From NCBI RefSeq assembly GCF_006345805.1, contig NC_043002.1, positions 92,132,001 through 92,196,000 on the forward strand: a stretch of DNA of 64,000 bases, in the 5' to 3' direction. Of the stretch, positions 8,261-42,427 are shown piece by piece. Below the pieces are notes generated by a model. It had not been told where the DNA came from, did not search any database, and saw only the letters and a program-made list of their open reading frames with translations. Position numbers and translations under genes: made by a program. This DNA comes from Octopus sinensis. Taxonomy: Eukaryota. The stretch's first letter is position 1; each line of letters opens with the position of its first letter.

Positions 8261-8547
8261 TAACAAGCGCAATACCATGGTGTAAAAAGGAAATATATGG
8301 ATAAGTACTTAAAAGATATTGTGTCTAGAGCCAGCTAGAGACGAAGATCTCTTGGGGCTATAAAGCTACAGTAACACCCCCTCCCCAATGTGGTTAGCCA
8401 TGATAAGATGGCTTCTATACTTTACATTATCGAGCGATTACTGTTTCAATCTCATTCTGAGATTTAATTATGCTTACTGTTCGTTTTTCGACATCAGTGG
8501 CAGACGCCATTAGAAAAACTTATATCTATTTGCAAAGGAGCCTTCAC

Positions 8548-8565
8548 TTTCATCGCTACCTGGTG
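8548..8565 (+). repeat. 18-bp target-site duplication TTTCATCGCTACCTGGTG (also 14097-14114, 19598-19615, 25135-25152)
   Basis: Four exact copies, one at every element junction. Outer flanks differ: CCTTCAC on the left, GTTACCG on the right. Confidence 0.95.
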
Positions 8566-8818
8566 TTTTTTGAATTTTTCCTCGGCGTATACCAATATTT
8601 TTCTGTTGCTGCAAATCGTTGTGTGAGTTCGTTTCCGTTTGTCTACTCTGTCGTGTTACAAGTAATATCATTGTTGAACTGTTTTTGACCCAGTAATTTT
8701 CGCCCTTTGGGGTAGAAAATTTCTGTGTGCTGTTTTGTGTGAACTCTTAACCTGTATAGGTTATTTTTGGAAAAAAAAAAATTCTCTTGTCATTTGTGAC
8801 AAGTTTGTGTTGTCTAAT

Positions 8819-10330
8819 ATGGAATTAGACTTAAGTTCAAAAAAAGACTTTCCCGAGATGGGAGAAGTATAACAACTGTTAAACAAAAGGAAACACAGAC
8901 AAAACCCAGTTTTTCAGACGCCGTAGGTGGCGAAGTCGAAGAAATGGAGGTATCAATGGAAAGATTATTCAAGTTTAGATCGCTGGTGCAAAAAAGTGGC
9001 GAAGAAACACGATTGGTACCGCCCCCCGAAACTATACAAGCAATAAAGGAAAAAATGGTCACCTACAGGGTGTACAATATCAAGAAAAACGAATGACCGA
9101 CGTGAAAAACGAAATGGTCGAAAAGTGTATGGCTCCAATAGGAGTAAAGTTAGTCATGTCAACCGAGGTGCAAGAAGCGCTACAGTGGAGGCGCATTTTG
9201 AAACGGCGGAAGTAGCAAGGCAAATTTCGACACAAACGTTGAAAAACGAGAGTATAATACTGCTACCCTTATATTTAGGATGCAGAACCGCAAAAGTGAC
9301 CCTAGAAGATATACCAAGGGGCTACGACGTGATGTGGGCGGCAACAGCGGTCATTTTTGATGTTGAATCAAAATTGACAATTTTAAGTATGAAGAGAAAA
9401 ATTGCAAAACACTGGAGAGGCCAGCAGCTGGAGATGATAATCCAGGCGGAAAATGCGACGTTGGAAAGCCTACCAGACAGAGTCTTCGTGGGGGAGGGGC
9501 ACTCCATACGAGTTTCGGTGGAAGGACGCAGGCCCAGATGTTTTAAGTGCGGGCAAAAGGGCCACGTTCGCTCCGTTTGCACAAAAAAAAATAATGCGGG
9601 CAACGCCCCCCCACAAAACGCTGTGAAGAACGCAGAAAGCAGCAAAGTGGAGAAAAAAGTAACGGCTGGCGAAAACAAGGAGGAAAAAATAAACAGGTCG
9701 AACTCCAAAAAGGAGGAAGACAAGAACGAAATGCAAAATGAGAAAGGAAAGGATGAGGAAAATAATGCAACAAAAACAAATAAACAAGAAGACATGGAAT
9801 TTACGAACGTGTCCAACAAAAGGAAAAAATCCATCACCCCTGACTCCCCACCCGTATCAAAAAAAAAAACAACGCAGACGAACAAATTAAAAATATTCTC
9901 CAATCCCACCCCGGCGGTACTACACTTATAGGCCAGCACTTTAACAAACCCCACCCCCCAACTGTAAAAGGGTTTAAACCCAACGAAAAAATTATTGCAT
10001 ACACCACAAAGAACGTGAGAGTAGAAACATGGGTGAAAGCAAGTACGCTGATCAGGTGCTACAAAGCGACCGAGAAGGAAGCAGGAGGCGGAGTGGCGAT
10101 ATGGAAGGGTCGGCGAAGAAGGATGGAAAGACAAAACCTTACAAAGCCACGTAAAAGCCGGCTTCATTAAGGATGTCACCCAGGAGGTGACAACTGGGAA
10201 ATTACCCGTTAGCCCGGCAGCCACACCAACCCAGAGCCCGGTGGCAACGCCGGTGAAACACCCAGCAGCAACGGCGAGTGGGGGGGAGACAGGCAGAAAG
10301 AATCTGTCAGGCTCCCTCTCGCAACCGTGA
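8819..10330 (+). CDS. ORF1 (gag-like nucleic-acid-binding protein), copy 1, frameshifted as given
   Basis: Starts MELDLSSKKDFPEMG. Contains the CX2CX4HX4C knuckle CFKCGQKGHVRSVC followed by a K/E/N-rich linker. Ends at TGA 10328-10330. About 500 aa when the three copies are reconciled. Confidence 0.85.
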
Positions 10331-10353
10331 GTAAATAATTTTCTTTTTTCTCG

Positions 10354-13300
10354 ATGATTAAGTTAGGTTGTATAAATGTGCGTGGAATGGGATCGAAATG
10401 GAAACAGGCTTGTTTTCGTGACGACCTCATTTCACATAGAATCGAATCGAGTAGCTATTGTTACCGAGTCCAAGATGAAGGGACCCCAAGCGTTCTCACC
10501 ACTTCTCAATGGTTACGAGAAATTTATTTCTCCTAGCCGAGGGGGAGGTGCAGGCGTGGCAGTTCTTTTCAGGAAGAACTTGGACTTACAGGTAAGTACT
10601 GTCTTTTTGGACCCAGAAGGTAGGCTGGTTGTCCTAGATGTGACGCACGTGAGTAAGCAGTCCTTCAGGTTGGTGGCTGTCTACGCTCCTAACGGACGTG
10701 GGCAGACCGGTTTTTATCGGGAACTGGAGCACTTTCTAGTGACGTCCAAAACGGTAGTCTTGGTAGGGGATTTCAACACCATTCTCGATGCGCGGGTGGA
10801 TGGTGTAGGCTCGAGCGATAGGAAGGGGAATCCTGGCCTCAAGGCTCTACTAGCGAGCTTTAATCTAGTAGACCGTTTTCGACTGGATGAGCCGAACGTT
10901 CCACAGTGGACGTGGAGTAATAACGACGGCTCACTCAGATCGTACATAGATAGAGTATTTGTTAAGGAACGAGATAGGAATAGTGTTAGCTGTCCACAAT
11001 TCTCTGTTGTGCCTTACACGGATCACAAACTTGTAACGTGTGAGGTACATGTAGATAAATGCCATAGACAAGGTCCCGGGTACTGGAAGATGAACAAGTC
11101 TATTTTGACCTGTGAAGCTTTCCGTACCCGGATTAAGGAATTAGTACAGAGGGCATTATGTGGCACCATCATTAATAATAGATGGTGGCTCGCCCTCAAA
11201 AGAGCCATCCGTTTGGAGTCCATTAGATTTAGCAAGCAGCTAAGTTTAGATAGGACTAGAATAGAGGGCGAATTAGTTAAGAACTTAGACGAGGCTATGG
11301 AATCTGGCTGTGCATCCGGAGTGTTGGCAGCGAGAGCGGTATTGTACCGTCACCTCAACGCCAAGCACGAGGGGTGTAGAGTCAGAGCTAAGTTACGTGC
11401 AGGAAAACGAGAAGGTATTAACGTTGCCGGATGGGCCCGTCGTGAGGAGAGTCAGAAGGGCAAAAAGTCCTGTATTATGTCCTTAACTGACGAGCAGGAC
11501 CGCAAGATCTATGGACAGGAGGAGATGCAGAAGGTCCTTCACCAGCATTTCGCACGGCTGTTTGGGGGCGGTGGCCCGCTCGAGCGTGGGGAGACCTTAA
11601 AGGACTTCCTAGCTGGTGGGCCTCGGCTCTCGGCAGGTGAGGCGGAGTGCTGTGAAGGATCGATCTCTCCCGCAGAGGTAAGAGGGGTTATGGCCGAGTG
11701 CGCGGGGAAAAGTCACCGGGATTGGATGGTCTACCCTATGAATTTTATTGTTGTATGCCGGACTTGTTCGGGGACATACTGGCAAGCGTCTATGCAAACT
11801 GGCAACAGAATGGGAGGATTCCCAGCTCTGTGAGTCGGGGAGTTGTGACGCTGGTCCAGAAAGACCCGAGCAAGGGGGACAGTATTAGTAATTACAGGCC
11901 CATAACTCTACTTAATGTAGAGTTTAAGATTTTGGCCAAGGTGTTAGCAAAAAGGTTGACGGCTGTCGTGAAGAAACTTGTCGGGAAGGCACAGACATGT
12001 GCAATCCCAGGCAGGTCGATCCAGGATAATCTTCACCTTCTCCGCTACACTATAGATAGGGTCGGGAAATTAGACGGCAAAGGAGGGGCATTGGTCCATT
12101 TAGACCAAAGTAAAGCGTTTGATAGGGTGGACCATCGGTACTTGGCGGCGGTTCTCGAAGCGGCTGGGCTGGGCCCTGGCTTCTGCGGGTGGATCTCAGC
12201 TATGTACAGCGGCATCAAGTCCACAGTCCAGATAAACGGTTACCTAACGGAGCCGTTTTCGATCAAGCGTTCAGTTCGACAAGGGTGCCCCTTGTCCCCG
12301 CTCCTGTATGTTTTGGCTCTTGAGCCATTGCTGCGGAAGCTGGAGAAGTTGGGAGGCAACCCTAATGAAATCGGATGCGGTAAGTCTGTTTCTGCCTATG
12401 CGGATGACGTCACCCTCATCGTGTCCAACGGAACACAGCTACCTCGGGTAGTAGGTGCTCTCCATAGATACGAAGCGGTGGCAGGGGCAAAAGTTAACAG
12501 GGACAAGTCCATCGGTTTGCGCCTCGGCACCTGGAGGAACAAGCAGATACCGTCCAGTGTTGTTGGACACTGGACGGATGGTCCTGTTAAATTGCTCGGA
12601 GTATGGTTTGGTCCAGACTCCCAGACGGAGAAGAATTGGAGCGAGGTAACGAGCAAGGTGGATGCCATAGTACGGAAGTGGTCCGGAAGGCATCTTTCCT
12701 TGAAAGGGAGGGCGGAGGTGGCACAGATGTTTATAGCCTCTGTCGTCACCTACCGCCTGACCGTCGTGCCTTGCCCCGATTCGTGGTTAAACAAGTTGGA
12801 ACGACTTCTTTTCCGCTTTTTGTGGAAAGGAGGAAAGCCACTTGTGAGACGCTCCGTGTGTTGCCAGGAACCGCTAAAGGGTGGACTGGGGATGCCTTGG
12901 CTAATGATGCGCAAGCATGCGTTGAGGCTGAGACACCTCTGGTGTTACCTGGAGGATGATAAGGTGGGAGTTCGCTGGCAGAGGAATTCTTCCCGCGACC
13001 GGCCTCTATGGAGGGATTTACACCCGGTCTCATTAAAGGACGTAAACTGACTTCATGGCAGAAGGAGTGCCGACAGGCACTCTGGCTGATCCACAAGATG
13101 GGTAAGGCCGGCAGCGGGAATACCACCTCGGTGTTCTATAAAGGGCTGGTAGGAGGAAAAAATGACGACGTCCTAGGAAGGGCTCTGGGGTTCGATGAGG
13201 ATCAACTCTCCAACCTGTTTAAGAAGACTTTCAGGCCGGGGTATTTGGATAATTACCAAAAATCCCTGACCTGGCAGTGCTATAGGAATGCATTACCTGT

Positions 13301-13745
13301 TCGCGAGAAGTTATCCAGGCACGGAATGTCAGTGCCACCGACGTGTCCAAGATGTGGGTTGGACGATGAAACCGTTCAACACGCTTTTGTACAATGTCGG
13401 GAGCTGTCAGGCTTGATAAGTTACGTGGAACACGTGTTGTCGCATCTGGGACGAGTACAGCTGTCGGCTGGATCTATGATTAAGATGATACCGCCAACTG
13501 GACTCTCAAAGGAAGGTAAGGCTTGTTTTTACTGTACGGTGGCAGTATTGAAAGAGTGTGTATGGAGAACTAGAGTGGAAGGTCTAGTGAAAGGGTCCTT
13601 TATCTCTGGCCCCGGTTTGTTAAAATACTTCGGATATCATCTGAAGAGCAAGATGGGGTTGGAGAAGAGGAGCCTGCCACAGAAAGAGTATATGGAACGT
13701 TGGAAGGATGTGATGAGAAAGGTGGGTGAGAGTAGCCCAGCTTAA
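10354..13745 (+). CDS. ORF2 (APE endonuclease - reverse transcriptase - CCHC), copy 1, frameshifted as given
   Basis: APE motifs INVRG, VYAP, GDFN, IDR, TDH. RT motifs SPGLDG, YRPITLLN, LDQSKAFDRVDH, QGCPLSP, YADD. Tx1/L1-type WSGRHLSLKGR, FLWKG, GGLG. C-terminal CPRC...H...C. Confidence 0.92.
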
Positions 13746-14369
13746 TCATCGAGGAAAGGAGGGATCGGCTGCTGGGATTTATAGGCTGCCGGGTTCAAAA
13801 TTGAAACTGGTACCTCCCATTACCTTTCACTGTACATAACTGTTTAAAATAAAGAATTAATAATAAAAAAAAAGAAATGAAAAGAAAACATACGCACTAA
13901 AAGTTCTCGTGATAAAGGCAAAAGTAAGCCAAGGTTTCGTTTCAAGGCAAAGTAAGCCAAGTTTTCGTTCAAGTGACATAAAATTTTAATTTTGTAATTT
14001 TTTAAATTTCATTCGAACTCGCATAGCATTTTTGTAACTGTTTTGTCCTGTAATGTATCCATTCTATGTTAGATCTATTGATCATAATAAAGAAAATTTC
14101 ATCGCTACCTGGTGTTTTTTGAATTTTTCCTCGGCGTATACCAATATTTTTCTGTTGCTGCAAATCGTTGTGTGAGTTCGTTTCCGTTTGTCTACTCTGT
14201 CGTGTTACAAGTAATATCATTGTTGAACTGTTTTTGACCCAGTAATTTTCGCCCTTCGGGGTGATAGAAAATTTTTGTGTGCGTTTTGTGTGAACTCTTA
14301 ACCTGTATAGGTTATTTTTGGAAAAAAAAAAATTCTCTTGTCATTTGTGACAAGTTTGTGTTGTCTAAT

Positions 14370-15878
14370 ATGGAATTAGACTTAAGTTCAAAAAAAGACT
14401 TTCCCGAGATGGGAGAAAGTATAACAACTGTTAAACAAAAGGAAACACAGACAAAACCCAGTTTTTCAGACGCCGTAGGTGGCGAAGTCGAAGAAATGGA
14501 GGTATCAATGGAAAGATTATTCAAGTTTAGATCGCTGGTGCAAAAAAGTGGTGCGAAGAAACACGATTGGTACCGCCCCCCGAAAACTACAAGCAATAAA
14601 GGAAAAAATGGTCACCTACAGGGTGTACAATATCAAGGAAAAACGAATGACCGACGTGAAAAACGAAATGGTCGAAAAGTGTATGGCTCCAATATGGAGT
14701 AAAGTTAGTCATGTCAACCGAGGTGCAAGAAGCGCTACAGTGGAGGCGCATTTTGAAACGGCGGAAGTAGCAAGGCAAATTTCGACACAAACGTTGAAAA
14801 ACGAGAGTATAATACTGCTACCCTTATATTTAGGATGCAGAACCGCAAAAGTGACCCTAGAAGATATACCAAGGGGCTACGACGTGATGTGGGCGGCAAC
14901 AGCGGTCATTTTTGATGTTGAATCAAAATTGACAATTTTAAGTATGAAGAGAAAAATTGCAAAACACTGGAGAGGCCAGCAGCTGGAGATGATAATCCAG
15001 GCGGAAAATGCGACGTTGGAAAGCCTACCAGACAGAGTCTTCGTGGGGGAGGGGCACTCCATACGAGTTTCGGTGGAAGGACGCAGGCCCAGATGTTTTA
15101 AGTGCGGGCAAAAGGGCCACGTTCGCTCCGTTTGCACAAAAAAAAATAATGCGGGCAACGCCCCCCCACAAAACGCTGTGAAGAACGCAGAAAGCAGCAA
15201 AGTGGAGAAAAAAGTAACGGCTGGCGAAAACAAGGAGGAAAAAATAAACAGGTCGAACTCCAAAAAGGAGGAAGACAAGAACGAAATGCAAAATGAGAAA
15301 GGAAAGGATGAGGAAAATAATGCAACAAAAACAAATAAACAAGAAGACATGGAATTTACGAACGTGTCCAACAAAAGGAAAAAATCCATCACCCCTGACT
15401 CCCCACCCGTATCAAAAAAAAAAACAACGCAGACGAACAAATTAAAAATATTCTCCAATCCACCCCGGCGGTACTACACTTATAGGCCAGCACTTTAACA
15501 AACCCCACCCCCCAACTGTAAAAGGGTTTAAACCCAACGAAAAAATTATTGCATACACCACAAAGAACGTGAGAGTAGAAACATGGGTGAAAGCAAGTAC
15601 GCTGATCAGTGTGCTACAAAGCGACCGAGAAGGAAGCGGAGTGGCGATATGGAAGGGTCGGCGAAGAAGGATGGAAAGACAAAACCTTACAAAGCCACGT
15701 AAAAGCCGGCTTCATTAAGGATGTCACCCAGGAGGTGACAACTGGGAAATTACCCGTTAGCCCGGCAGCCACACCAACCCAGAGCCCGGTGGCAACGCCG
15801 GTGAAACACCCAGCAGCAACGGCGAGTGGGGGGGAGACAGGCAGAAAGAATCTGTCAGGCTCCCTCTCGCAACCGTGA
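14370..15878 (+). CDS. ORF1, copy 2, frameshifted as given
   Basis: Same protein as copy 1, split over ORF-track pieces 14277-14702, 14479-15498 and 15609-15878. Confidence 0.85.
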
Positions 15879-15901
15879 GTAAATAATTTTCTTTTTTCTC
15901 G

Positions 15902-18900
15902 ATGATTAAGTTAGGTTGTATAAATGTGCGTGGAATGGGATCGAAATGGAAACAGGCTTGTTTTCGTGACGACCTCATTTCACATAGAATCGAAGTAGCT
16001 ATTGTTACCGAGTCCAAGATGAAGGGACCCCAAGCGTTCTCACCACTTCTCAATGGTTACGAGAAATTTATTTCTCCTAGCCGAGGGGGAGGTGCAGGCG
16101 TGGCAGTTCTTTTCAGGAAGAACTTGGACTTACAGGTAAGTACTGTCTTTTTGGACCCAGAAGGTAGGCTGGTTGTCCTAGATGTGACGCACGTGAGTAA
16201 GCAGTCCTTCAGGTTGGTGGCTGTCTACGCTCCTAACGGACGTGGGCAGACCGGTTTTTATCGGGAACTGGAGCACTTTCTAGTGACGTCCAAAACGGTA
16301 GTCTTGGTAGGGGATTTCAACACCATTCTCGATGCGCGGGTGGATGGTGTAGGCTCGAGCGATAGGAAGGGGAATCCTGGCCTCAAGGCTCTACTAGCGA
16401 GCTTTAATCTAGTAGACCGTTTTCGACTGGATGAGCCGAACGTTCCACAGTGGACGTGGAGTAATAACGACGGCTCACTCAGATCGTACATAGATAGAGT
16501 ATTTGTTAAGGAACGAGATAGGAATAGTGTTAGCTGTCCACAATTCTCTGTTGTGCCTTACACGGATCACAAACTTGTAACGTGTGAGGTACATGTAGAT
16601 AAATGCCATAGACAAGGTCCCGGGTACTGGAAGATGAACAAGTCTATTTTGACCTGTGAAGCTTTCCGTACCCGGATTAAGGAATTAGTACAGAGGGCAT
16701 TATGTGGCACCATCATTAATAATAGATGGTGGCTCGCCCTCAAAAGAGCCATCCGTTGGAGTCCATTAGATTTAGCAAGCAGCTAAGTTTAGATAGGACT
16801 AGAATAGAGGGCGAATTAGTTAAGAACTTAGACGAGGCTATGGAATCTGGCTGTGCATCCGGAGTGTTGGCAGCGAGAGCGGTATTGTACCGTCACCTCA
16901 ACGCCAAGCACGAGGGGTGTAGAGTCAGAGCTAAGTTACGTGCAGGAAAACGAGAAGGTATTAACGTTGCCGGATGGGCCCGTCGTGAGGAGAGTCAGAA
17001 GGGCAAAAAGTCCTGTATTATGTCCTTAACTGACGAGCAGGACCGCAAGATCTATGGACAGGAGGAGATGCAGAAGGTCCTTCACCAGCATTTCGCACGG
17101 CTGTTTGGGGGCGGTGGCCCGCTCGAGCGTGGGGAGACCTTAAAGGACTTCCTAGCTGGTGGGCCTCGGCTCTCGGCAGGTGAGGCGGAGTGCTGTGAAG
17201 GATCGATCTCCGCCCGCAGGTAAGAGGGGCTATGGCCGAGTGCGCCGGGGAAAAGTCACCGGGATTGGATGGTCTACCCTATGAATTTTATTGTTGTATG
17301 CCGGACTTGTTCGGGGACATACTGGCAAGCGTCTATGCAAACTGGCAACAGAATGGAGGATTCCCAGCTCTGTGAGTCGGGGAGTTGTGACGCTGGTCCA
17401 GAAAGACCCGAGCAAGGGGGACAGTATTAGTAATTACAGGCCCATAACTCTACTTAATGTAGAGTTTAAGATTTTGGCCAAGGTGTTAGCAAAAAGGTTG
17501 ACGGCTGTCGTGAAGAAACTTGTCGGGAAGGCACAGACATGTGCAATCCCAGGCAGGTCGATCCAGGATAATCTTCACCTTCTCCGCTACACTATAGATA
17601 GGGTCGGGAAATTAGACGGCAAAGGAGGGGCATTGGTCCATTTAGACCAAAGTAAAGCGTTTGATAGGGTGGACCATCGGTACTTGGCGGCGGTTCTCGA
17701 AGCGGCTGGGCTGGGCCCTGGCTTCTGCGGGTGGATCTCAGCTATGTACAGCGGCATCAAGTCCACAGTCCAGATAAACGGTTACCTAACGGAGCCGTTT
17801 TCGATCAAGCGTTCAGTTCGACAAGGGTGCCCCTTGTCCCCGCTCCTGTATGTTTTGGCTCTTGAGCCATTGCTGCGGAAGCTGGAGAAGTTGGGAGGCA
17901 ACCCTAATGAAATCGGATGCGGTAAGTCTGTTTCTGCCTATGCGGATGACGTCACCCTCATCGTGTCCAACGGAACACAGCTACCTCGGGTAGTAGGTGC
18001 TCTCCATAGATACGAAGCGGTGGCAGGGGCAAAAGTTAACAGGGACAAGTCCATCGGTTTGCGCCTCGGCACCTGGAGGAACAAGCAGATACCGTCCAGT
18101 GTTGTTGGACACTGGACGGATGGTCCTGTTAAATTGCTCGGAGTATGGTTTGGTCCAGACTCCCAGACGGAGAAGAATTGGAGCGAGGTAACGAGCAAGG
18201 TGGATGCCATAGTACGGAAGTGGTCCGGAAGGCATCTTTCCTTGAAAGGGAGGGCGGAGGTGGCACAGATGTTTAGACCGTCTTTCCTTACCCGTGCCTC
18301 TTTGTGGAAAAGGTGGGAAACAGTTGTGAACGAACGCTTGTGGAAGGTGTTGCGCCAGGAAACCGTGCGAACGCTAAAGGGTGGACTGGGGATGCCTTGG
18401 CTAATGATGCGCAAGCATACGTTGAGGCTGAGACACCTCTGGTGTTACCTGGAGGATGATAAGGTGTGGAGTTCGCTGGCAGAGGAATTCTTCCCGCGAC
18501 CGGCCTCTATGGAGGGATTTACACCCGGTCTCATTAAAGGACGTAAACTGACTTCATGGCAGAAGGAGTGCCGACAGGCACTCTGGCTGATCCACAAGAT
18601 GGGTAAGGCCGGCAGCGGGAATACCACCTCGGTGTTCTATAAAGGGCTGGTAGGAGGAAAAAATGACGACGTCCTAGGAAGGGCTCTGGGGTTCGATGAG
18701 GATCAACTCTCCAACCTGTTTAAGAAGACTTTCAGGCCGGGGTATTTGGATAATTACCAAAAATCCCTGACCTGGCAGTGCTATAGGAATGCATTACCTG
18801 TTCGCGAGAAGTTATCCAGGCACGGAATGTCAGTGCCACCGACGTGTCCAAGATGTGGGTTGGACGATGAAACCGTTCAACACGCTTTTGTACAATGTCG

Positions 18901-19246
18901 GGAGCTGTCAGGCTTGATAAGTTACGTGGAACACGTGTTGTCGCATCTGGGACGAGTACAGCTGTCGGCTGGATCTATGATTAAGATGATACCGCCAACT
19001 GGACTCTCAAAGGAAGGTAAGGCTTGTTTTTACTGTACGGTGGCAGTATTGAAAGAGTGTGTATGGAGAACTAGAGTGGAAGGTCTAGTGAAAGGGTCCT
19101 TTATCTCTGGCCCCGGTTTGTTAAAATACTTCGGATATCATCTGAAGAGCAAGATGGGTTGGGAGAGAGAGGAGCCTGCACAGAAAGAGTATATGGAACG
19201 TTGGAAGGATGTGATGAGAAAGGTGGGTGAGAGTAGCCCAGCTTAA
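15902..19246 (+). CDS. ORF2, copy 2, frameshifted as given
   Basis: Pieces 15902-16786 (APE), 16726-17223 and 17291-19246 (RT with YADD plus CCHC). Confidence 0.92.
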
Positions 19247-19868
19247 TCATCGAGGAAAGGAGGGATCGGCTGCTGGGATTTATAGGCTGCCGGGTTCAAA
19301 ATTGAAACTGGTACCTCCCATTACCTTTCACTGTACATAACTGTTTAAAATAAAGAATTAATAATAAAAAAACAGAAATGAAAAGAAAACATACGCACTA
19401 AAAGTTCTCGTGATAAAGGCAAAAGTAAGCCAAGGTTTCGTTTCAAGGCAAAGTAAGCCAAGTTTTCGTTCAAGTGACATAAAATTTTAATTTTGTAATT
19501 TTTTAAATTTCATTCGAACTCGCATAGCATTTTTGTAACTGTTTTGTCCTGTAATGTATCCATTCTATGTTAGATCTATTGATCATAATAAAGAAAATTT
19601 CATCGCTACCTGGTGTTTTTTGAATTTTTCCTCGGCGTATACCAATATTTTTCTGTTGCTGCAAATCGTTGTGTGAGTCGTTTTCCGTTTGTCTACTCTG
19701 TCGTGTTACAAGTAATATCATTGTTGAACTGTTTTTGACCCAGTAATTTTCGCCCTTCGGGGTAGAAAATTTCTGTGTGCTGTTTTGTGTGAACTCTTAA
19801 CCTGTATAGGTTATTTTTGGAAAAAAAAAAATTCTCTTGTCATTTGTGACAAGTTTGTGTTGTCTAAT

Positions 19869-21374
19869 ATGGAATTAGACTTAAGTTCAAAAAAGACTTT
19901 CCCGAGATGGGAGAAAGTATAAACACTGTTAAAAAAAGGAAACACAGACAAAACCCAGTTTTTCAGACGCCGTAGGTGGCGAAGTCGAAGAAATGGAGGT
20001 ATCAATGGAAAGATTATTCAAGTTTAGATCGCTGGTGCAAAAAAGTGGTGAAGAAGAAACACGATTGGTACCGCCCCCCGAAACTATACAAGCAATAAAG
20101 GAAAAAATGGTCACCTACAGGTGTACAATATCAAGGAAAAACGAATGACCGACGTGAAAAACGAAATGGTCGAAAAGTGTATGGCTCCAATATGGAGTAA
20201 AGTTAGTCCTGTCAACCGAGGTGCAAGAAGCGCTACAGTGGAGGCGCATTTTGAAACGGCGGAAGTAGTAGCAAGGCAAATTTCGACACAAACGTTGAAA
20301 AACGAGAGTATAATACTGCTACCCTTATATTAGGATGCAGAACCGCAAAAGTGACCCTAGAAGATATACCAAGGGGCTACGACGTGATGTGGGCGGCAAC
20401 AGCGGTCATTTTTGATGTTGAATCAAAATTGACAATTTTAAGTATGAAGAGAAAAATTGCAAAACACTGGAGAGGCCAGCAGCTGGAGATGATAATCCAG
20501 GCGGAAAATGCGACGTTGGAAAGCCTACCAGACAGAGTCTTCGTGGGGGAGGGGCACTCCATACGAGTTTCGGTGGAAAGACGCAGGCCCAGATGTTTAA
20601 GTGCGGGCCAAAGGGGCCACGTTCGCTCCGTTTGCACAAAAAAAAATAATGCGGGCAACGCCCCCCCACAAAACGCTGTGAAGAACGCAGAAAGCAGCAA
20701 AGTGGAGAAAAAAGTAACGGCTGGCGAAAACAAGGAGGAAAAATAAACAGGTCGAACTCCAAAAAGGAGGAAGACAAGAACGAAATGCAAAAGATGAGAA
20801 AGGAAAGGATGAGGAAAATAATGCAACAAAACAAATAAACAAGAAGACATGGAATTTACGAACGTGTCCAACAAAAGGAAAAAATCCATCACCCCTGACT
20901 CCCCACCCGTATCAAAAAAAAAAACAACGCAGACGAACAAATTAAAATATTCTCCAATCCCACCCCGGCGGTACTACACTTATAGGCCAGCACTTTAACA
21001 AACCCCACCCCCCAACTGTAAAAGGGTTTAAACCCAACGAAAAAATTATTGCATAACCACAAAGAACGTGAGAGTAGAAACATGGGTGAAAGCAAGTACG
21101 CTGATCAGGTGCTACAAAGCGACCGAGAAGGAAGCGGAGTGGCGATATGGAAGGGTCGGCGAAGAAGGATGGAAAGACAAAACCTTACAAAGCCACGTAA
21201 AAGCCGGCTTCATTAAGGATGTCACCCAGGAGGTGACAACTGGGGAATTACCCGTTAGCCCGGCAGCCACACCAACCCAGAGCCCGGTGGCAACGCCGGT
21301 GAACACCCAGCAGCAACGGCGAGTGGGGGGGAGACAGGCAGAAAGAATCTGTCAGCTCCCTCTCGCAACCGTGA
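19869..21374 (+). CDS. ORF1, copy 3, frameshifted as given
   Basis: Same sequence as copies 1 and 2 with several small indels. Confidence 0.8.
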
Positions 21375-21397
21375 GTAAATAATTTTCTTTTTTCTCG

Positions 21398-24300
21398 ATG
21401 ATTAAGTTAGGTTGTATAAATGTGCGTGGAATGGGATCGAAATGGAAACAGGCTTGTTTTCGTGACGACCTCATTTCACATAGAATCGAAGTAGCTATTG
21501 TTACCGAGTCCAAGATGAAGGGACCCCAAGCGTTCTCACCACTTCTCAATGGTTACGAGAAATTTATTTCTCCTAGCCGAGGGGGAGGTGCAGGCGTGGC
21601 AGTTCTTTTAAGGAAGAACTTGGACTTACAGGTAAGTACTGTCTTTTTGGACCTAGAAGGTAGGCTGGTTGTCCTAGATGTGACGCACGTGAGTAAGCAG
21701 TCCTTCAGGTTGGTGGCTGTCTACGCTCCTAACGGACGTGGGCAGACCGGTTTTTATCGGGAACTGGAGCACTTTCTAGTGACGTCCAAAACGGTAGTCT
21801 TGGTAGGGGATTTCAACACCATTCTCGATGCGCGGGTGGATGGTGTAGGCTCGAGCGATAGGAAGGGGAATCCTGGCCTCAAGGCTCTACTAGCGAGCTT
21901 TAATCTAGTAGACCGTTTTCGACTGGATGAGCCGAACGTTCCACAGTGACGTGGAGTAATAACGACGGCTCACTCAGATCGTACATAGATAGAGTATTTG
22001 TTAAGGAACGAGATAGGAATAGTGTTAGCTGTCCACAATTCTCTGTTGTGCCTTACACGGATCACAAACTTGTAACGTGTGAGGTACATGTAGATAAATG
22101 CCATAGACAAAGGTCCCGGGTACTGGAAGATGAACAAGTCTATTTTGACCTGTGAAGCTTTCCGTACCCGGATTAAGGAATTAGTACAGAGGGCATTATG
22201 TGGCACCATCATTAATAATAGATGGTGGCTCGCCCTCAAAAGAGCCATCCGTTTGGAGTCCATTAGATTTAGCAAGCAGCTAAGTTTAGATAGGACTAGA
22301 ATAGAGGGCGAATTAGTTAAGAACTTAGACGAGGCTATGGAATCTGGCTGCTGTGCATCCGGAGTGTTGGCAGCGAGAGCGGTATTGTACCGTCACCTCA
22401 ACGCCAAGCACGAGGGGTGTAGAGTCAGAGCTAAGTTACGTGCAGGAAAACGAGAAGGTATTAACGTTGCCGGATGGGCCCGTCGTGAGGAGAGTCAGAA
22501 GGGCAAAAAGTCCTGTATTATGTCCTTAACTGACGAGTAGGACCGCAAGATCTATGGACAGGAGGAGATGCAGAAGGTCCTTCACCAGCATTTCGCACGG
22601 CTGTTTGGGGCGGTGGCCCGCTCGAGCGTGGGGAGACCTTAAAGACTTCCTAGCTGGTGGGCCTCGGCTCTCGGCAGGTGAGGCGGAGTGCTGTGAAGAT
22701 CGATCTCTCCCGCAGAGGTAAGAGGGGCTATGGCCGAGTGCGCCGGGGAAAAGTCACGGGATTGGATGGTCTACCCTATGAATTTTATTGTTGTATGCCG
22801 GACTTGTTCGGGGACATACTGGCAAGCGTCTATGCAAACTGGCAACAGAATGGGAGAATTCCCAGCTCTGTGAGTCGGGGAGTTGTGACGCTGGTCCAGA
22901 AAGACCCGAGCAAGGGGGACAGTATTAGTAATTACAGGCCCATAACTCTACTTAATGTAGAGTTTAAGATTTTGGCCAAGGTGTTAGCAAAAGGTTGACG
23001 GCTGTCGTGAAGAAACTTGTCGGGAAGGCACAGACATGTGCAATCCCAGGCAGGTCGATCCAGGATAATCTTCACCTTCTCCGCTACACTATAGATAGGG
23101 TCGGGAAATTAGACGGCAAAGGAGGGGCATTGGTCCATTTAGACCAAAGTAAAGCGTTGATAGGGTGGACCATCGGTACTTGGCGGCGGTTCTCGAAGCG
23201 GCTGGGCTGGGCCCTGGCTTCTGCGGGTGGATCTCAGCTATGTACAGCGGCATCAAGTCCACAGTCCAGATAAACGGTTACCTAACGGAGCCGTTTTCGA
23301 TCAAGCGTTCAGTTCGACAAGGGTGCCCCTTGTCCCCGCTCCTGTATGTTTTGGCTCTTGAGCCATTGCTGCGGAAGCTGGAGAAGTTGGGAGGCAAACC
23401 TAATGAAATCGGATGCGGTAAGTCTGTTTCTGCCTATGCGGATGACGTCACCCTCATCGTGTCCAACGGAACACAGCTACCTCGGGTAGTAGGTGCTCTC
23501 CATAGATACGAAGCGGTGGCAGGGGCAAAAGTTAACAGGGACAAGTCCATCGGTTTGCGCCTCGGCACCTGGAGGAACAAGCAGATACCGTCCAGTGTTG
23601 TTGGACACTGGACGGATGGTCCTGTTAAATTGCTCGGAGTATGGTTTGGTCCAGACTCCCAGACGGAGAAGAATTGGAGCGAGGTAACGAGCAAGGTGGA
23701 TGCCATAGTACGGAAGTGGTCCGGAAGGCATCTTTCCTTGAAAGGGGAGGCGGAGGTGGCACAGATTGTTTAGCCTCTGTCGTCACCTACCGCCTGACCG
23801 TCGTGCCTTGCCCCGATTCGTGGTTAAACAAGTTGGAACGACTTCTTTTCCGCTTTTTGTGGAAAGGAGGAAAGCCACTTGTGAGACGCTCCGTGTGTTG
23901 CCAGGAACCGCTAAAGGGTGGACTGGGGATGCCTTGGCTAATGATGCGCAAGCATACGTTGAGGCTGAGACACCTCTGGTGTTACCTGGAGGATGATAAG
24001 GTGTGGAGTTCGCTGGCAGAGGAATTCTTCCCGCGACCGGCCTCTATGGAGGGATTTACACCCGGTCTCATTAAAGGACGTAAACTGACTTCATGGCAGA
24101 AGGAGTGCCGACAGGCACTCTGGCTGATCCACAAGATGGGTAAGGCCGGCAGCGGGAATACCACCTCGGTGTTCTATAAAGGGCTGGTAGGAGGAAAAAA
24201 TGACGACGTCCTAGGAAGGGCTCTGGGGTTCGATGAGGATCAACTCTCCACCTGTTTAAGAAGACTTTCAGGCCGGGGTATTTGGATAATTACCAAAAAT

Positions 24301-24783
24301 CCCTGACCTGGCAGTGCTATAGGAATGCATTACCTGTTCGCGAGAAGTTATCCAGGCACGGAATGTCAGTGCCACCGACGTGTCCAAGATGTGGGTTGGA
24401 CGATGAAACCGTTCAACACGCTTTTGTACAATGTCGGGAGCTGTCAGGCTTGATAAGTTACGTGGAACACGTGTTGTCGCATCTGGGACGAGTACAGCTG
24501 TCGGCTGGATCTATGATTAAGATGATACCGCCAACTGGACTCTCAAAGGAAGGTAAGGCTTGTTTTTACTGTACGGTGGCAGTATTGAAAGAGTGTGTAT
24601 GGGAACTAGAGTGGAAGGTCTAGTGAAAGGGTCCTTTATCTCTGGCCCCGGTTTGTTAAAATACTTCGGATATCATCTGAAGAGCAAGATGGGGTTGGAG
24701 AAGAGGAGCCTGCCACAGAAAGAGAGTATATGGAACGTTGGAAGGATGTGATGAGAAAGGTGGGTGAGAGTAGCCCAGCTTAA
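21398..24783 (+). CDS. ORF2, copy 3, multiply frameshifted, CAG>TAG at 22538-22540
   Basis: APE, RT (YADD) and CCHC motifs spread over several ORF-track fragments. Confidence 0.85.
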
Positions 24784-25157
24784 TCATCGAGGAAAGGAGG
24801 GATCGGCTGCTGGGATTTATAGGCTGCCGGGTTCAAAATTGAAACTGGTACCTCCCATTACCTTTCACTGTACATAACTGTTTAAAATAAAGAATTAATA
24901 ATAAAAAAACAGAAATGAAAAGAAAACATACGCACTAAAAGTTCTCGTGATAAAGGCAAAAGTAAGCCAAGGTTTCGTTTCAAGGCAAAGTAAGCCAAGT
25001 TTTCGTTCAAGTGACATAAAATTTTAATTTTGTAATTTTTTAAATTTCATTCGAACTCGCATAGCATTTTTGTAACTGTTTTGTCCTGTAATGTATCCAT
25101 TCTATGTTAGATCTATTGATCATAATAAAGAAAATTTCATCGCTACCTGGTGGTTAC

Positions 25158-25200
25158 CGCCCGTTGACGAGGGACAACAATCCCGAAACTAGTTCGAGCG
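25158..25200 (+). ncRNA. Minimal type I hammerhead ribozyme motif (U3 variant)
   Basis: CGCCCG | UUGACGA | GGGA-caacaa-UCCC | GAAA | C-UA-G | UU^ | CGAGCG. Stem I has 5 of 6 pairs, stem II 4 bp, stem III is palindromic and minimal. Predicted cut after 25194. Confidence 0.75.
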
Positions 25201-25879
25201 TATCACTCAGGCTTGCGAGGAAGGGATGGCCTCCCTTTGCAAATACTCCAAGGACACAGATATTGTGTCTAGAGCCAGCTAGAGACGAAGATCTCTTGGG
25301 GCTATAAAGCTACAGTAACACCCCCTCCCCAATGTGGTTAGCCATGATAAGATGGCTTCTATACATTACATTATCGAGCGATTACTGTTTCAATCTCATT
25401 CTGAGATTTAATTAGACTTAAAATGCCTTCTCATTAATAAAGAGATGGTAGTGAAAAATAAGTCGCTAATATTTGGGGGGGGGAGTATGCCGGTGAGCTG
25501 GCAGAATCGTTAGCACACTGGCAAAATGCTTAGCGGCGTTTCGTTCGTCTTGCCCTTCTGTGTTCGAATTCCGCTAAACTCAACTTTGTTTTTCATCTTT
25601 TTATGGTCGATGAAATAAGTACCTATTGAACCGTGAGGTCGATGAAGTCGACTTACTCCGCTGGCCCTAAATTGCTGACCTTGAGCCAAAATTTGGAACC
25701 AATATTTTGAGGGAGGAGGCTGGTGTTTGTCATCTTGAGAAACATTGGATTAGACGATTAAATCTACTTCGGTACTTGATCGGTTCTTAAATTTATCAGC
25801 GGGATGTGAAATCTGAAAGTATGATAAGATCAAATATAAGATCTGACACGTTAACGATTCTGTTAATCTATTATGGAAT

Positions 25880-33752: not shown

Positions 33753-34319
33753 CATATATATATATATATCATAAAATTTATATTTTCCTCTTGATACGAT
33801 ATCTCGTCTTCAATTTTCCTGTGTTCTATAAATGTTTGGATTTTCATGTTCTATGAAATTTTTGACTGATCATTTTTATTGTCGTTTTCATGTTATGTTT
33901 CACCGCACCGCCTGGTGGTATTTCTCTATTGCAGGGATGTATGTAGCATTGTCTTGTGTGAATGTAGACTTGTGTTTCCATACTACGCTGGTTTCGTTTT
34001 GCTGTGGAATTTGGTTGGTTGTTTCTGGTGTTATTTTAATGCTTTGTCTATCGTGTAAAAATATGTGCAAATGAGAGTCGTGTGGCTTTGTTGGGTGACG
34101 TTTCTCTTTCGTATGTAATGGGTGACTGGTGTAATGCATTTTAGTGCCAATTGATGAACACAATGTCTACACCAAGTTTAAAATAGCAAAGTGTGCAGAT
34201 TTGTATTCCATCAAAGACGAAATTTATTTCAAAATTGATATAACATCAATAAAATATTAGACACAATATTGTAATACATAAAATACTTACGAATAACAAC
34301 ATAGAAAACAAATACTTCT

Positions 34320-34402
34320 TAGCACGAGTGGGGTTCGAACCCACGCGGACAATCGTTCATTGGAACTTAAGTCCAACGCCTTAACCACTCGGCCATCGTG
34401 CT
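34320..34402 (-). tRNA. tRNA-Leu(TAA), two substitutions in the variable arm
   Basis: Identical to 42345-42427 except for variable arm TGAACGATTGTCCG. Confidence 0.8.
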
Positions 34403-35167
34403 CCATGACGCATGTAACGCTTAGAAAACACTTATTGTTGATAGTATTGTTACTTGCTGCATTTCCCATAATCTTTCTCGGGTCTATAAAATGAAGCACC
34501 TATCAAGTATTCAAGTCCATTCTACCTCTCAAAATTACTGGTTTTGTCCATAAAAATTATTATTATAAGGGCGGTCGATTCGTAGAATAGTTATAGTACT
34601 TAGTACGGCTCTTTACGTTCCGTATCCAAAGTTCACTGAGGTCCTCTTTGACTTTCATCCTTCCGGGGTCGATAAAATAAAGTAACCTCCTCCCCCAAAT
34701 TTCAACTTTTGCGCCTATATTAGAAACGACAGATACGTGGACGAGCTGGCAGAACCATTAGCATGCCGGACAAAATGCTTAGCTGTATTTCACCGTCTTT
34801 TTGTTCGAGTCTAAATTCAACCCCGGTCGACTTTGCTTTTTATCTTTTAGGGGCCGATAAAATAAGTACCAGTTTAGTACTGGAGTCGATGAAGTCGACT
34901 TAACCCCTCCCCGAAAATGCTGGCCTTGGTTCAGAATCTAAAATCTATATTCTTTTACTCTTTTATTTGTTTTAATCATTTGACTGTGGCCATGCTGGAG
35001 CACCGCCTTTAGTCGAGCAAATCGCCCCCAGGACTTATTCTTTGTAAGCTTAGTACTTATTCTATCGGTCTCTTTTGCTGAACCGCTAAGTTACAGGGAC
35101 GTAAACACACCAGTATCAGTTGTCAAGCGATGTTGGGGGAGACAAACAAAGACACACAAACATATAC

Positions 35168-36392: not shown

Positions 36393-37677
36393 GTATATGT
36401 GTATGTATGTGTATATGTTTGTCTGTGTTTGTCCCCACAGCATCGCTTCACAACCGATGCTGGTGTGTTCACGTCCCCGTAACACTAGCGGTTCGGCAAA
36501 AGAAACCGATAAAATAAGTACTAGGCTTACAAAGAATAAGCTCTGGGGTTAATTTGCTCGACTAAAGGCGATGCTCCAGCATGGCCGCAGTCAAATGACT
36601 GAAACAAATAAGGAATAAAGAGTATGTGTAAAAAAAAAATTTTATTAAAATTCAAAAATGCAATAACAACTCCTCATTGTAACCGCAACCCAACCCGCCC
36701 CTTATTCCTTTTCATATAAGATATCACCTTGAATCTTCCAGTTCCGTATTTGTTTAGGTCTTTATGTTCTGTAAAATTTTCGGCTTTACTTCTGCTTTTA
36801 CTTTTACTTGTTTCAGTCAGTTGACTGCGGCCATGCTGGAGCACCGCCTTTAGTCGAGCAAATCGGCCCCAGGACTTATTCTTTGGAAGCCTAGTACTTA
36901 TTCTATCGGTTTCTTTTGCCGAACCGCTAAGTTAAGGCGACGTAAATACACCAGCATCGGTTGTCAAGCGACGTTGGGGGGACAAACACAGACACGCAAA
37001 TAATATACCCACACATACATATATATATTTTTTATATACGACGGGCTTCTTTCAGTTTCCGTCTACCAAATCCACTCACAAGGCTTTGGTCGGCCGGAGG
37101 CTGTAGTACAAGACACTTGCCCAAGGTGCCACACAGTGGGACTGAACCCGGAGCCATGTGGTTGGTAAGCAAGCTACTTACCACACAGCCTCTCCTGCGC
37201 CTAAGGTCATTTTCATGCGCCTAAGTCTGATCATTTTTATTATTGTTTTCATGTTAACTTCTACTGCGCCACCTGATGGTATTTCCGTGTCCCTGTGTTG
37301 TATGCAGCATTGTCTTCTAGGAATGTAGAATTATGTTTCTATGCTACGTTAGTTATGCTTTGTTGTGGAATTTGGTTGGTTGTTTCTGGAGTTATTTTAT
37401 TTCAATGTGTGTTCTGTTATTGTATTCAGTGATGTTTGTCTTCCGTGTATAATGAGTGATTAGTGATACGCAGTATAGAGTCAAGCGATGATTGTATAGA
37501 ACAGAATATTCACACCAAACTTTAAATAGACCAGCAAAAAAACATACAAATTCGCACTTCATGAAAGATACATTATATTTCGAAATTGGCATAACATCAA
37601 TAAAATAGTAAACACAGCATTGTAATAGATGATATACGTACGAATAAATTCACAGAAATAAACATAGAAAGTGTTTT

Positions 37678-37760
37678 TAGCAAGAGCGGGGTTCGAACAC
37701 ACGCGTACAACTATCCATAAGAACTTGAGTTTAACGCCTTAACTACTCGGCCATCGCGCT
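37678..37760 (-). pseudogene. tRNA-Leu pseudogene
   Basis: Colinear with the tRNA-Leu(TAA) but with many stem-breaking changes; anticodon reads CAA. Confidence 0.8.
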
Positions 37761-37934
37761 CCTAGATCCCAGTCTCTTTAAAGAACTCTTATTGCTGATA
37801 TTACTGACAGGGAATGTAATCGCCCGAAAGCACCGACCGAGAATTCGGCTAATTCCGTAGCCCCCATCCTTAGGGATCACTCGACTCGGCTGATTCCGAA
37901 CTTTATTCTCTATCAGAACATATTTTATTCACCA

Positions 37935-38070
37935 TCCATATACATATACATAGATACATAGATACATATATACATACATACATACATATATATACATATA
38001 TATATATAACTATTATATATACATATTATATATATTATATATATATATATATATGTATGTATATATATAC

Positions 38071-38101
<31 letters not shown>

Positions 38102-38123
38102 TGTTATGTATATATATATACAT

Positions 38124-38162
<39 letters not shown>

Positions 38163-38250
38163 ATATTATATAAACATACATATACATATACATACATAAC
38201 ATAGAGAACATACATCCATACTTATATGTATAAGTATATATATGAATTAT

Positions 38251-38282
<32 letters not shown>

Positions 38283-39172
38283 CATACATATACATTACAT
38301 ACATATACATAGAGACATACATCCATACTATATGTATAAGTATATATATGAAATACAATATATATATATATATATATATTATATATACCCAATTATATAT
38401 ATATGTATGTATGTATGTATATTTATATCAAAGGTTAACTGAGTTAGAGGTTAAAATAACCGTCTAAGGGATAGAAGTATCCATTATACTACTGGTATAT
38501 TACCTATGTTTAACCGTGGGCATACATACGCCAGCATATTATGTTCATAAATTATAGGTAACGACAAGAATAAGTTTTGATATGTATATGTATGCGTGTG
38601 TATGTGTGTGTGTGCATGTATATATATTGTAATATAGGTAGATATGCATGCGTTGCTTGTTGTCTACACCACATGTTCTTCTCCCTTTTTTTGTGAATTC
38701 TCCCTATATATATATATCTGTGTATATATATATGTATATATATATATATATATGTTATATAATATATTATGTATATATATATATCTATATGTATGTATAT
38801 ATATATATATGTATGTATATAATATATAGTATGTAATATATATATGATATTTATGTATATATATATATATGTATGTATATATATATAATGTATGTATATA
38901 TGTATTATAATTTATGTATATGTATATATGTATGTATGTATGTATATATGTATTTATGTAGTATAGATGTATGTATATATGTATGTATGTATGTATATAT
39001 GTATGTATGTATGTATATATGTATGTATATATATATTATGTATGTATTATGTATGTATATATATATGTATGTATATATATATGTATGTATGTATATATAT
39101 ATGTATGTATGTATATATATATGTATGTATGTATATATATATGTATGTATGTATATATAATAATATATATAC

Positions 39173-39205
<33 letters not shown>

Positions 39206-39507
39206 ATATATATATATATATATTATATGTATGTATGTAGTATGTATGTATGTATGTATAATGTATGTATGTATGTATATATGTATGTATGTATGTATAT
39301 ATGTATGTATATATGTATGTATGTATTGTATATATGTATGTATGTATGTATATATGTTGTATATATATATTGTATGTATGTATATATGTATGTATTATAT
39401 ATATGTATGTATATATATATATGTATGTATTATATATAATGTATGTATGTATATATATATGTATGTATGTATATATATATGTATGTATGTATTATATATA
39501 TATATTA

Positions 39508-39552
<45 letters not shown>

Positions 39553-39610
39553 ATATATATGGTATGTATGTATGTAGTATGTACGTACACCTATATGTAT
39601 ATGTATATAT
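37935..39610. repeat. Long (TA)/(TGTA) low-complexity tracts
   Basis: Seen directly; similar tracts at 28030-28240, 44320-44540, 48255-48630, 52375-52580 and 60540-60700. Confidence 0.95.
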
Positions 39611-39611
39611 A

Positions 39612-39931
39612 AGGTGTGTTGTGAGAATTTTTAGAACAAATATCGCATAGAAACTCAACAAACTGCTAAAGATGGAGAAGAGCAGATGTTACAAGTTTGA
39701 AAAGAATTTAATCCATGCATACGATCGTTTCGAACACCAGTAAATATATGTAATTATCATTAAATTAATTCCTAATTTCTCTACCATGTTATTTACATAT
39801 TAATATTGCTGTTTGAAACGATCGTATGCATGGATTAAATTCTTTTCAAGCTTCTAACATCTTCTCTTCTCTTTTAACCGTTTGTTGAGTTTCAATACGA
39901 TATTTGTTCTATAAAACCTCATAACACACCT
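39612..39931. mobile_element. Fold-back MITE (~140-bp imperfect arms), flanked by TATA
   Basis: AGGTGTGTTGTGAG... and ...CTCATAACACACCT; arms remain reverse-complementary nearly to the centre. Confidence 0.8.
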
Positions 39932-40177: not shown

Positions 40178-40544
40178 AGATAGATAGATAGATAGATAGA
40201 TAGAAGGTATGTCTTGGAAAGAGGAAAAAAAGGATTATGTCGGAATTTTATTACTGCATGTCCGATCAGTGTGTGTTCTGGCCGCGATGATTGTCTTTTA
40301 TGTTTACTGTGAGATTGGTATTATGCATTTTGGTGACACGCGGTGGCTGTAAAATAAGTACACCAAGTCAAAACAGAGGCATAGAATCATAAATTCGCAT
40401 GCCATCAAAGATGGAGTATATTTCAGAATTGGTATGATCCTATTAAAAAAATTAACAAAGTAGCTTTAGACACAGTTTTGTAATACATATAGAGTACATA
40501 CAAATTACTAAATAAACTCAGAATTTGAAGAAGAAAAAATTTCA

Positions 40545-40627
40545 TAGCACGAATTGCGTTCGAACCCACGCGGACAATTGTCCATTGGAACTTAAGCCCA
40601 AAGCCTTAACCACTCGGCCACCGTGCT
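40545..40627 (-). pseudogene. tRNA-Leu(TAA) pseudogene
   Basis: Colinear copy with a disrupted T stem (GTGGGTTCGAACGCAAT). Confidence 0.8.
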
Positions 40628-40899
40628 TCCGAGAAGTCGGTCTCTTTAAAAAAACTTTTATTGCTGATATTATTACTCACTGCATTTCCCATCATCCTTT
40701 CAGTGTGTGTTCTGGCTGTGATGTTTATCTTTCATGTATACTGTGAGATTGGTATTATGTATTTTGCTGTCAAGCGGTGACTGCGTAAAATAATTTTCAC
40801 CAAGTCAAAACAGAGGTATAAAAATATAGATCCGCACGCCATCAAAGACGGAGTATATTTCAAGTTTGCTATGGTAACATTACAATAATTTATAGTGTA

Positions 40900-40972
40900 A
40901 CAATGATGGCAGAGTGGTTAAGGCGTTGAAATTAATGGACAATTGTCCGTCTATGTTCGAATCCTAATTATG
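40900..40972 (+). pseudogene. tRNA-Leu pseudogene fragment in the opposite orientation
   Basis: GATGGCAGAGTGGTTAAGGCGTTG...TGGACAATTGTCCG...GTTCGAATCC with a deletion in the anticodon arm. Confidence 0.7.
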
Positions 40973-41057
40973 TCTGACAATATATATATATATATATATA
41001 TTGTCAGACATAATTAGGATTCGAACATAGACGGACAATTGTCCATTAATTTCAACG

Positions 41058-42344: not shown

Positions 42345-42427
42345 TAGCACGAGTGGGGTTCGAACCCACGCGGACAATTGTCCATTGGAACTTAAGTCCA
42401 ACGCCTTAACCACTCGGCCATCGTGCT
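42345..42427 (-). tRNA. tRNA-Leu(TAA), apparently intact
   Basis: AGCACGA/TCGTGCT acceptor stem, A box TGGCCGAGTGG, TTGGA-CT TAA GT-TCCAA anticodon arm, long variable arm, GTGGGTTCGAACCCCAC T arm, downstream T-run terminator. Confidence 0.93.

Follow-up and report, generated by a model that had tools for sequence, protein, structure and literature searches.

How do several complete copies of one retrotransposon come to lie head-to-tail, with one and the same short sequence at every boundary? The question is raised by a stretch of 64,000 nucleotides of Octopus sinensis (NCBI RefSeq assembly GCF_006345805.1, contig NC_043002.1, positions 92,132,001 to 92,196,000 of the forward strand; hereafter the window, with positions counted from its first letter), in which three full-length long interspersed nuclear elements (LINEs; E1, E2 and E3, together E) alternate with four copies of an 18-bp target (T). 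An earlier account made from the letters alone, the sequence-only reading, left a choice among serial site-specific reinsertion, amplification of one insertion by unequal recombination, and an assembly artefact. It missed the host site, which is a hammerhead retrozyme. We find that T is a part of this retrozyme and that the junction of element tail, T and element head is present in a public short-read run. We lean, with limited assurance, towards the view that a target-specific Tx1-type family has been reinserting into a regenerated retrozyme site, perhaps with extension of the array by unequal exchange.

Anatomy of the array and classification of the element

The pattern T-E-T-E-T-E-T, with a unit of exactly element plus T, had been proposed in the sequence-only reading and is borne out by the positions of T and by the element ends, both of which the three elements share. 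The exact 18-mer starts at 8548, 14097, 19598 and 25135, with no other occurrence on either strand of the window at up to four mismatches, and the T+E units are 5549, 5501 and 5537 bp long. The first 42 displayed bases after T and the last 40 before it are the same in all three elements, the latter ending in the invariant tail AATAAAGAAAA (3 of 3 copies). When E1 was searched against the window by BLAST, only the three whole copies were matched, so there are no terminal repeats. The array and its host are made up as follows.

8307..8314, plus strand: left 8-bp duplication ACTTAAAA bounding the retrozyme insertion, read directly
8315..8547, plus strand: left part of the host retrozyme, like a Penelope pseudo-long terminal repeat (pLTR), with a 156-bp direct repeat (8315-8470) and the 5' arm of the stem enclosing the ribozyme
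8548..8565, plus strand: T1, 18-bp target-site duplication (TSD), by sequence match
8566..14096, plus strand: E1, full-length LINE, by open reading frames (ORFs) and Pfam, with frames broken by indels
14097..14114, plus strand: T2, regenerated target at the E1/E2 boundary, a junction type also present in run X6 at depth 150.9
14115..19597, plus strand: E2, full-length LINE, with zf-CCHC (E 5e-4), RVT_1 (2e-32) and zf-RVT (4e-10)
19598..19615, plus strand: T3, regenerated target at the E2/E3 boundary, by sequence match
19616..25134, plus strand: E3, full-length LINE, richest in private indels by the copy alignments
25135..25152, plus strand: T4, 18-bp target, its last 7 bases being the distal 5' arm of the extended helix I of the ribozyme
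25146..25216, plus strand: type I hammerhead ribozyme on the strand of the LINE, by Rfam RF02275 and motif scan
25153..25415, plus strand: right part of the host retrozyme, whose end is formed by the second direct repeat (25259-25414), by BLAST and period
25416..25423, plus strand: right 8-bp duplication, the same 8-mer, read directly

Each pair of copies is separated by 55-86 alignment events, in which indels predominate. Isolated substitutions number 3, 12 and 7 in the three pairs, and those which do not lie beside a base run come to two distinct ones (12919 and 11495) over 5.5 kb. In E2 a scrambled stretch of about 100 bp (~18275-18371) is read as a consensus error, and most of the differences between copies are likewise read as long-read consensus errors, with a true divergence close to zero; contigs of public short-read runs disagree with several of the E1 indels. 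A tRNA-Phe called by ARAGORN at 18213-18293 was rejected, as it overlaps the scrambled stretch and has no Rfam support.

In E1, ORF1 (~8820-10330) carries a CCHC zinc knuckle, and ORF2 (10354-13745) carries an apurinic/apyrimidinic endonuclease (APE), a reverse transcriptase (RT) and a C-terminal CCHC. Pfam matches in E1 are Exo_endo_phos (E 3e-11) and RVT_1 (1e-32); the zf-CCHC match of ORF1 has E 5e-4 and 20.4 bits against a cut-off of 20.8, and one knuckle was read in the translation. A majority consensus of the three copies has an open ORF2 of 1134 codons, a frame that is broken in every single copy, and the frame-breaking indels of E1 look like sequencing errors. The motifs YAPN, GDFN, SYID, TDH and YADD are present in the translations. 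A profile of 26 relatives matched human L1 ORF2p with E 2e-121, as compared with 1e-39 for R2, and the nearest named proteins are those of Argonauta hians (64%) and Acanthosepion pharaonis (49%). With an ORF2 of APE, RT and CCHC, a separate ORF1 and TSDs without terminal repeats, E is, as judged from its domains, a two-ORF AP-endonuclease LINE of the L1 group, and its family is probably young and active.

In a quick IQ-TREE of 85 rows, none of them a labelled Tx1 or L1 reference, the RT falls in a clade of 17 rows (support 100) within a group of 54 rows (93 in the Shimodaira-Hasegawa-like approximate likelihood ratio test, SH-aLRT). The larger group includes elements flanked by U2 small nuclear RNA (snRNA) or 5S ribosomal RNA (rRNA), with such matches in 6 of the 20 loci scanned. 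Because U2 and 5S are targets of Tx1 (PMC4494074), this grouping makes it probable that E belongs to Tx1. Its putative bottom-strand nick reads GAAA/GTGA and has no T-tract, which departs from the canonical L1 nick TTTT/AA with a long variable poly(A); the L1 endonuclease prefers a poly(T)-A junction (PMC1950540).

Among distant relatives from metagenomes, U2 snRNA lies in or beside the element, or 5S rRNA after it, in L006 (1-123 and 5806-5947), L015 (5815-5977), L002 (701-817), L003 (554-716), L017 (5495-5618) and L019 (5892-6010); those associated with U2 are Keno-like, and both ends of L006 have 29 bp in common. The metagenome relatives have identities of 28-49%, and the sharing of a target with them was dismissed for this reason. 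No RT relative was found in the viral contigs searched, and ARAGORN reported no tRNA in 19 loci scanned.

A probable hammerhead retrozyme as host repeat

The sequence-only reading had stated that no other flank is duplicated. This has to be corrected, since 8314-8476 and 25258-25420 are direct repeats of 98% identity over 163 bp by BLAST, which belong to the host retrozyme and not to the LINE unit. With the array taken out, the host repeat has a period of 357 bp and comprises 1.4 units. The hammerhead at its right side matches Rfam HH9 (RF02275) with 31.2 bits, short of the gathering score of 52 (E 5.6e-6 in a search of 501 bp, 7e-4 in one of the whole window), and is the one match of the motif scan in the window. 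It shows the core UUGACGA...GAAA with U at core position 3, a helix II of 4 bp, a palindromic helix III without a loop (ACUAGU) and one mismatch in helix I. The predicted cut is after 25194, 60 nt beyond the end of the element.

The domain of the empty site folds with z = -5.5, and 15 of the 18 bases of T are paired in the predicted fold. As T belongs to the retrozyme and pairs in its fold, it is host sequence and hence a true TSD, and the alternative of T as part of the LINE is ruled out.

The host repeat fits a Penelope-type non-LTR retrozyme or pseudo-LTR derivative, as its sequence combines a type I hammerhead in the monomer with a short, non-coding, partial tandem, and its depth is very high in all four public runs compared below. 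Active retrozymes are held to carry two complete hammerhead ribozymes; this locus, with 1.4 units, has one. Weak hammerheads of salamanders have better activity as dimers (PMC7229834), and by analogy the hammerhead of the host repeat might also benefit from a dimer.

A second retrozyme-like repeat lies on the minus strand at 41130-41701 (the repeat itself at ~41130-41600), with a period of 362 bp and no LINE inside. Its similarity to the host repeat is 69-76% where the direct repeats are compared; it has the same enclosing stem and a fold of z = -7.3, and differs in sequence at the position equivalent to T. A hammerhead-like core is visible by eye near 41338, with no Rfam match at E <= 1, and an inverted duplicate at ~41606-41701 stands beside the repeat, as in Penelope insertions. 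Elsewhere, one of 83 loci scanned (L078, 224-290) has a motif like a type I hammerhead, in which the palindromic helix III recurs; it was judged incidental, as the first ORF of the distant LINE at this locus starts ~1.7 kb downstream and the motif is not at the edge of that LINE. Rfam gave no match on 10 further loci. Three exact matches of the 18-mer in viral contigs were taken as chance, and the hammerhead scan found no match in them.

Public contigs and the origin of the array

Twenty public runs under four organism labels contain the stretch or part of it, with no RNA data set listed among them, and four of the 24 listed runs (X5, X6, X8 and X12) were compared, with one unit and its left flank (8262-14134) as the reference in place of the whole array. 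The baselines were the medians of low-depth contigs, namely 53, 6.5, 65 and 7 from 13, 9, 14 and 6 values, respectively, with rows clearly off the main cluster omitted. Depth does not equal copy number, so the copy estimates are rough; moreover, contigs drop minor alleles, and the individual of the window may differ from those sampled in the runs.

In X6 one contig passes from the 3' end of the element through T into its 5' end at a depth of 150.9, and element-specific contigs have depths of 196.5 and 198.8. This corresponds to about 23 junctions. The junction share is then 77%, and it falls to 49% when every contig at 8648 is included. Being present in a short-read contig, the junction is not an assembly product, and at around three quarters of the element depth it largely removes the possibility, left by the sequence-only reading, that one element was mis-assembled. 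An artefact in which one element was written three times would agree with the error-rich long-read consensus, with the scrambled stretch of E2 and with the lack of a contig spanning the whole unit among the contigs listed; the X6 junction at ~23 times the low-depth baseline opposes it, and we rate it the least probable of the explanations. The exact number of three may nevertheless be wrong, collapse being as likely as inflation.

Depth divided by baseline gives, roughly, 17-47 copies of the element, mostly near 30. The two ends of the element have nearly equal depth in X5 (5' end 1679, 3' end 1674), and therefore most copies are full-length; as a rough picture, some 30 copies exist which are mostly full-length and tandem. 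In X6, T follows an estimated 49-77% of copies, in the form of tandem junctions possibly from one locus, as set against the value of >20% of flanks in one repeat type given for target preference in PMC4494074. No junction to another target was found among the rows listed, which does not show that such junctions are absent. The contigs of the retrozyme bin add up to a depth which exceeds the low-depth baseline ~1,900-4,500 times; because contigs overlap, this figure is too high by a factor of at least 1.4 to 2.3. The target family makes up ~0.01-0.07% of a 2.8-Gb genome; this low share speaks, after the fact and with a rough copy number, for target-specific reinsertion.

Each of the four runs departs from the three window copies at 13762, 13763 and 13975, and at 13767 nearly all the depth in three runs and all of it in the fourth does so. 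The dominant haplotype of the 3' untranslated region (UTR) in X6 differs from the window copies at these four sites, yet it has the same T junction, which suggests that two element haplotypes are tied to one target. The allele at 8648 looks fixed between runs (0 of 1679 in X5 versus 117.7 of 117.7 in X12).

Some further observations were made on these contigs. In all four runs the ORF2 bins (10400-13750) exceed those of ORF1 and the UTRs in depth by a factor of roughly ten or more, and contigs ~90% identical occur at family-like depth in ORF2; the excess is explained by sibling families of ~90% identity which share ORF2 and not the ends. One X5 contig connects 10369 with 13779, and so the ORF2 start with the 3' UTR, across 35 intervening letters of other sequence, at a depth of 28 (about half the baseline), and is possibly an internally deleted, non-autonomous copy. 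A joint of 8724 to 8849 at family depth in three of the four runs may be false.

In the account that we favour, the LINE family would prefer one site in the high-copy retrozyme, at the base of the extended helix I of the ribozyme. The bottom strand would be nicked by its endonuclease at the left boundary of T, the top strand 18 bp to the right of it, and target-primed reverse transcription would then yield T-E-T. Because the 18-bp target is regenerated whole, further insertion would be possible, and later insertions would yield T-(E-T)n, from which units might afterwards be gained or lost by unequal exchange. Priming would more likely proceed via read-through RNA carrying T, because the primer end 5'-GAAA-3' cannot pair with the A tail of the element; accurate reverse transcription of R1Bm is said, at second hand, to depend on target sequence downstream (PMC7265360).

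Target-specific reinsertion draws on the probable Tx1 clade, the multicopy target, the nick site unlike that of L1, a junction share below 95% and the second haplotype with the same junction. A number of results weigh against it. The window copies are near-identical (two clean substitutions), as local amplification predicts, and four alleles common to the three of them are absent from the dominant contigs of the four runs; the sequence-only reading had taken shared private mutations as a mark of local duplication, and this mark is present in part. The junction was found in one run of four, with none among the joints listed in X5, X8 and X12. Among the matches listed there is neither another junction of retrozyme, T and element nor an insertion at T with a truncated 5' end, and only one locus was seen. 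The lack of truncation, together with the equal depths of both ends in X5, is to be read beside Drosophila, where the 5' end is truncated in most tandem junctions of non-LTR elements (10.1101/158386). The depth of single family contigs in X6 lies between 80 and 316, so one long array fits as well, and the Tx1 assignment comes from a tree without labelled Tx1 or L1 references.

Many of these results would be expected of a LINE satellite confined to one locus, to which we give a lesser, still considerable, probability. Here a single weakly specific insertion would be dimerised, either by exchange between two 18-bp duplications or by one double insertion, and would then grow by unequal exchange to perhaps 20-25 copies, of which the assembly or the haplotype shows three. 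The near-identity of the copies, the equal 5' and 3' depth, a junction depth inside the spread of single family contigs, the four alleles in all three copies that are missing from the dominant contigs, and the sites seemingly fixed between runs, such as 8648 (X5 versus X12), all agree with it, and the R1 and hobo arrays of D. melanogaster grew from dimers likewise (10.1101/158386). A lone 24-mer, however, predicts a junction share near 95% where 49-77% is seen, the putative nick site is not L1-like, and the terminal copy E3 has the 3' UTR alleles of E1 and E2 to within 122 bp of its end, though homogenisation should be harder at an array edge. Exchange on 18 bp of homology is moreover rare. 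Between reinsertion and unequal recombination, the two routes of the sequence-only reading, the data do not settle the choice, and that reading is partly borne out, T being host sequence and the duplication a true TSD.

We consider a route through circles quite improbable. A DNA circle of E+T excised between T copies, copied by rolling and inserted again at T, or a read-through RNA of several units reverse transcribed as a concatemer, would produce the same E+T unit and near-identical full-length copies, and a rolling-circle origin has been discussed for Bari1 arrays (10.1101/158386); there is no direct evidence of circles here. RNA circles of the retrozyme were rejected as a source, because they would repeat the element with the 357-bp monomer and the unit has only 18 bp of host.

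Target-specific reinsertion might also be carried further, to a model in which the LINE is a dedicated parasite of the retrozyme and borrows its ribozyme, so that the hammerhead sets the read-through 3' end. Taken whole, we think this model unlikely, and the use of the hammerhead cut by the LINE is speculation. The read-through RNA of the last copy would be cut by the hammerhead 60 nt past the element end; the template end, lying in the exact target, would pair with the nicked site, fix the invariant 3' junction and substitute for a poly(A) tail. Where the retrozyme forms multimers, a hammerhead upstream would likewise free the element from the co-transcript, and regeneration of the site would make each insertion a growing array. 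The ribozyme of R2 is its own and releases that element from its co-transcript.

Related systems and other features of the window

Tx1 families that target other repeats include Tx1L in Tx1D of Xenopus, Tx1-Mar in Mariner-N4 of crocodilians and Keno in U2, and families targeting piggyBac, Mariner, Harbinger and LTR elements are also known (PMC4494074). The octopus LINE resembles them in the zinc knuckle of ORF1, in the APE, RT and CCHC of ORF2, in its insertion in a multicopy repeat, and in an RT that groups near U2- and 5S-flanked relatives. It differs in that its host repeat, a hammerhead retrozyme or Penelope pLTR derivative, is not among the targets named in the excerpted text of PMC4494074, that most of its copies appear tandem, and that its specificity is a proposal from one locus.

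In Drosophila, reinsertion of R1 builds arrays in which two to three copies per site are spaced by TSDs (PMC2718515). As in the octopus array, the copies are of APE type and head-to-tail with one target duplication between them (14 or 33 bp in R1), and besides reinsertion one case was expanded by unequal exchange (PMC2718515; 10.1101/158386). R1 belongs to another clade and targets 28S ribosomal DNA, whereas the octopus duplication is 18 bp, its target is a non-autonomous retroelement, and truncated tandems are not among the octopus matches listed. Utopia-1_NVit in U2 genes is also a site-specific non-LTR element with occasional tandem insertion at its target, but it uses a restriction-like endonuclease and another target (PMC4640811). 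The host repeat itself is like non-LTR retrozymes and Penelope pseudo-LTRs in having a non-coding monomer of ~350 bp in partial tandem at high copy, with one type I hammerhead per unit (PMC7229834; 10.64898/2026.07.22.740005); unlike active retrozymes, the octopus locus has 1.4 units, one ribozyme with U at core position 3 and a helix I mismatch, and is interrupted by the LINE. In O. vulgaris, 13 recently active L1-Tx1 families account for 421 insertions, ~32 per family (PMC13282606).

By title and abstract opening, in a search with most subscription journals and Repbase outside its range, no report of a LINE targeting a retrozyme or Penelope pseudo-LTR was found. Stacks spaced by TSDs are known from other site-specific elements; the landing site in a ribozyme-bearing repeat would be a novelty, provided that a second site bears it out. 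If the specificity holds, there is a new class of LINE target, namely a retroelement with a self-cleaving ribozyme which is itself probably Penelope-dependent, and a young intact family with most copies already tandem. Such a family would be a tractable case in which to ask whether repeated insertion or recombination drives the growth of satellites derived from transposable elements, and whether a host ribozyme can serve a LINE in forming its RNA end. If the specificity fails, the locus is an ordinary L1/Tx1 insertion amplified in place. Assemblies of cephalopods may misstate arrays of such kind.

Apart from the array, the window has three tRNA-Leu(TAA) genes or pseudogenes on the minus strand (34320-34402, 40545-40627 and 42344-42427), the first two in or beside related blocks at ~33866-34476, 37227-37806 and 40286-40699, and a tRNA-like inverted repeat at 40934-41049. 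The short interspersed nuclear element (SINE) flanking the array we take to resemble the octopus SINE. An unrelated LINE fragment with RT lies on the minus strand at 44578-46191 (RVT_1, E 1e-29; best identity in the tree 28%), and its motifs are presumably RTE-like. Matches to microRNA families were rejected as spurious products of the AT-rich tracts at 37930-39620, which are long, degenerate simple repeats, with a GC content of ~19% at 38-40 kb.

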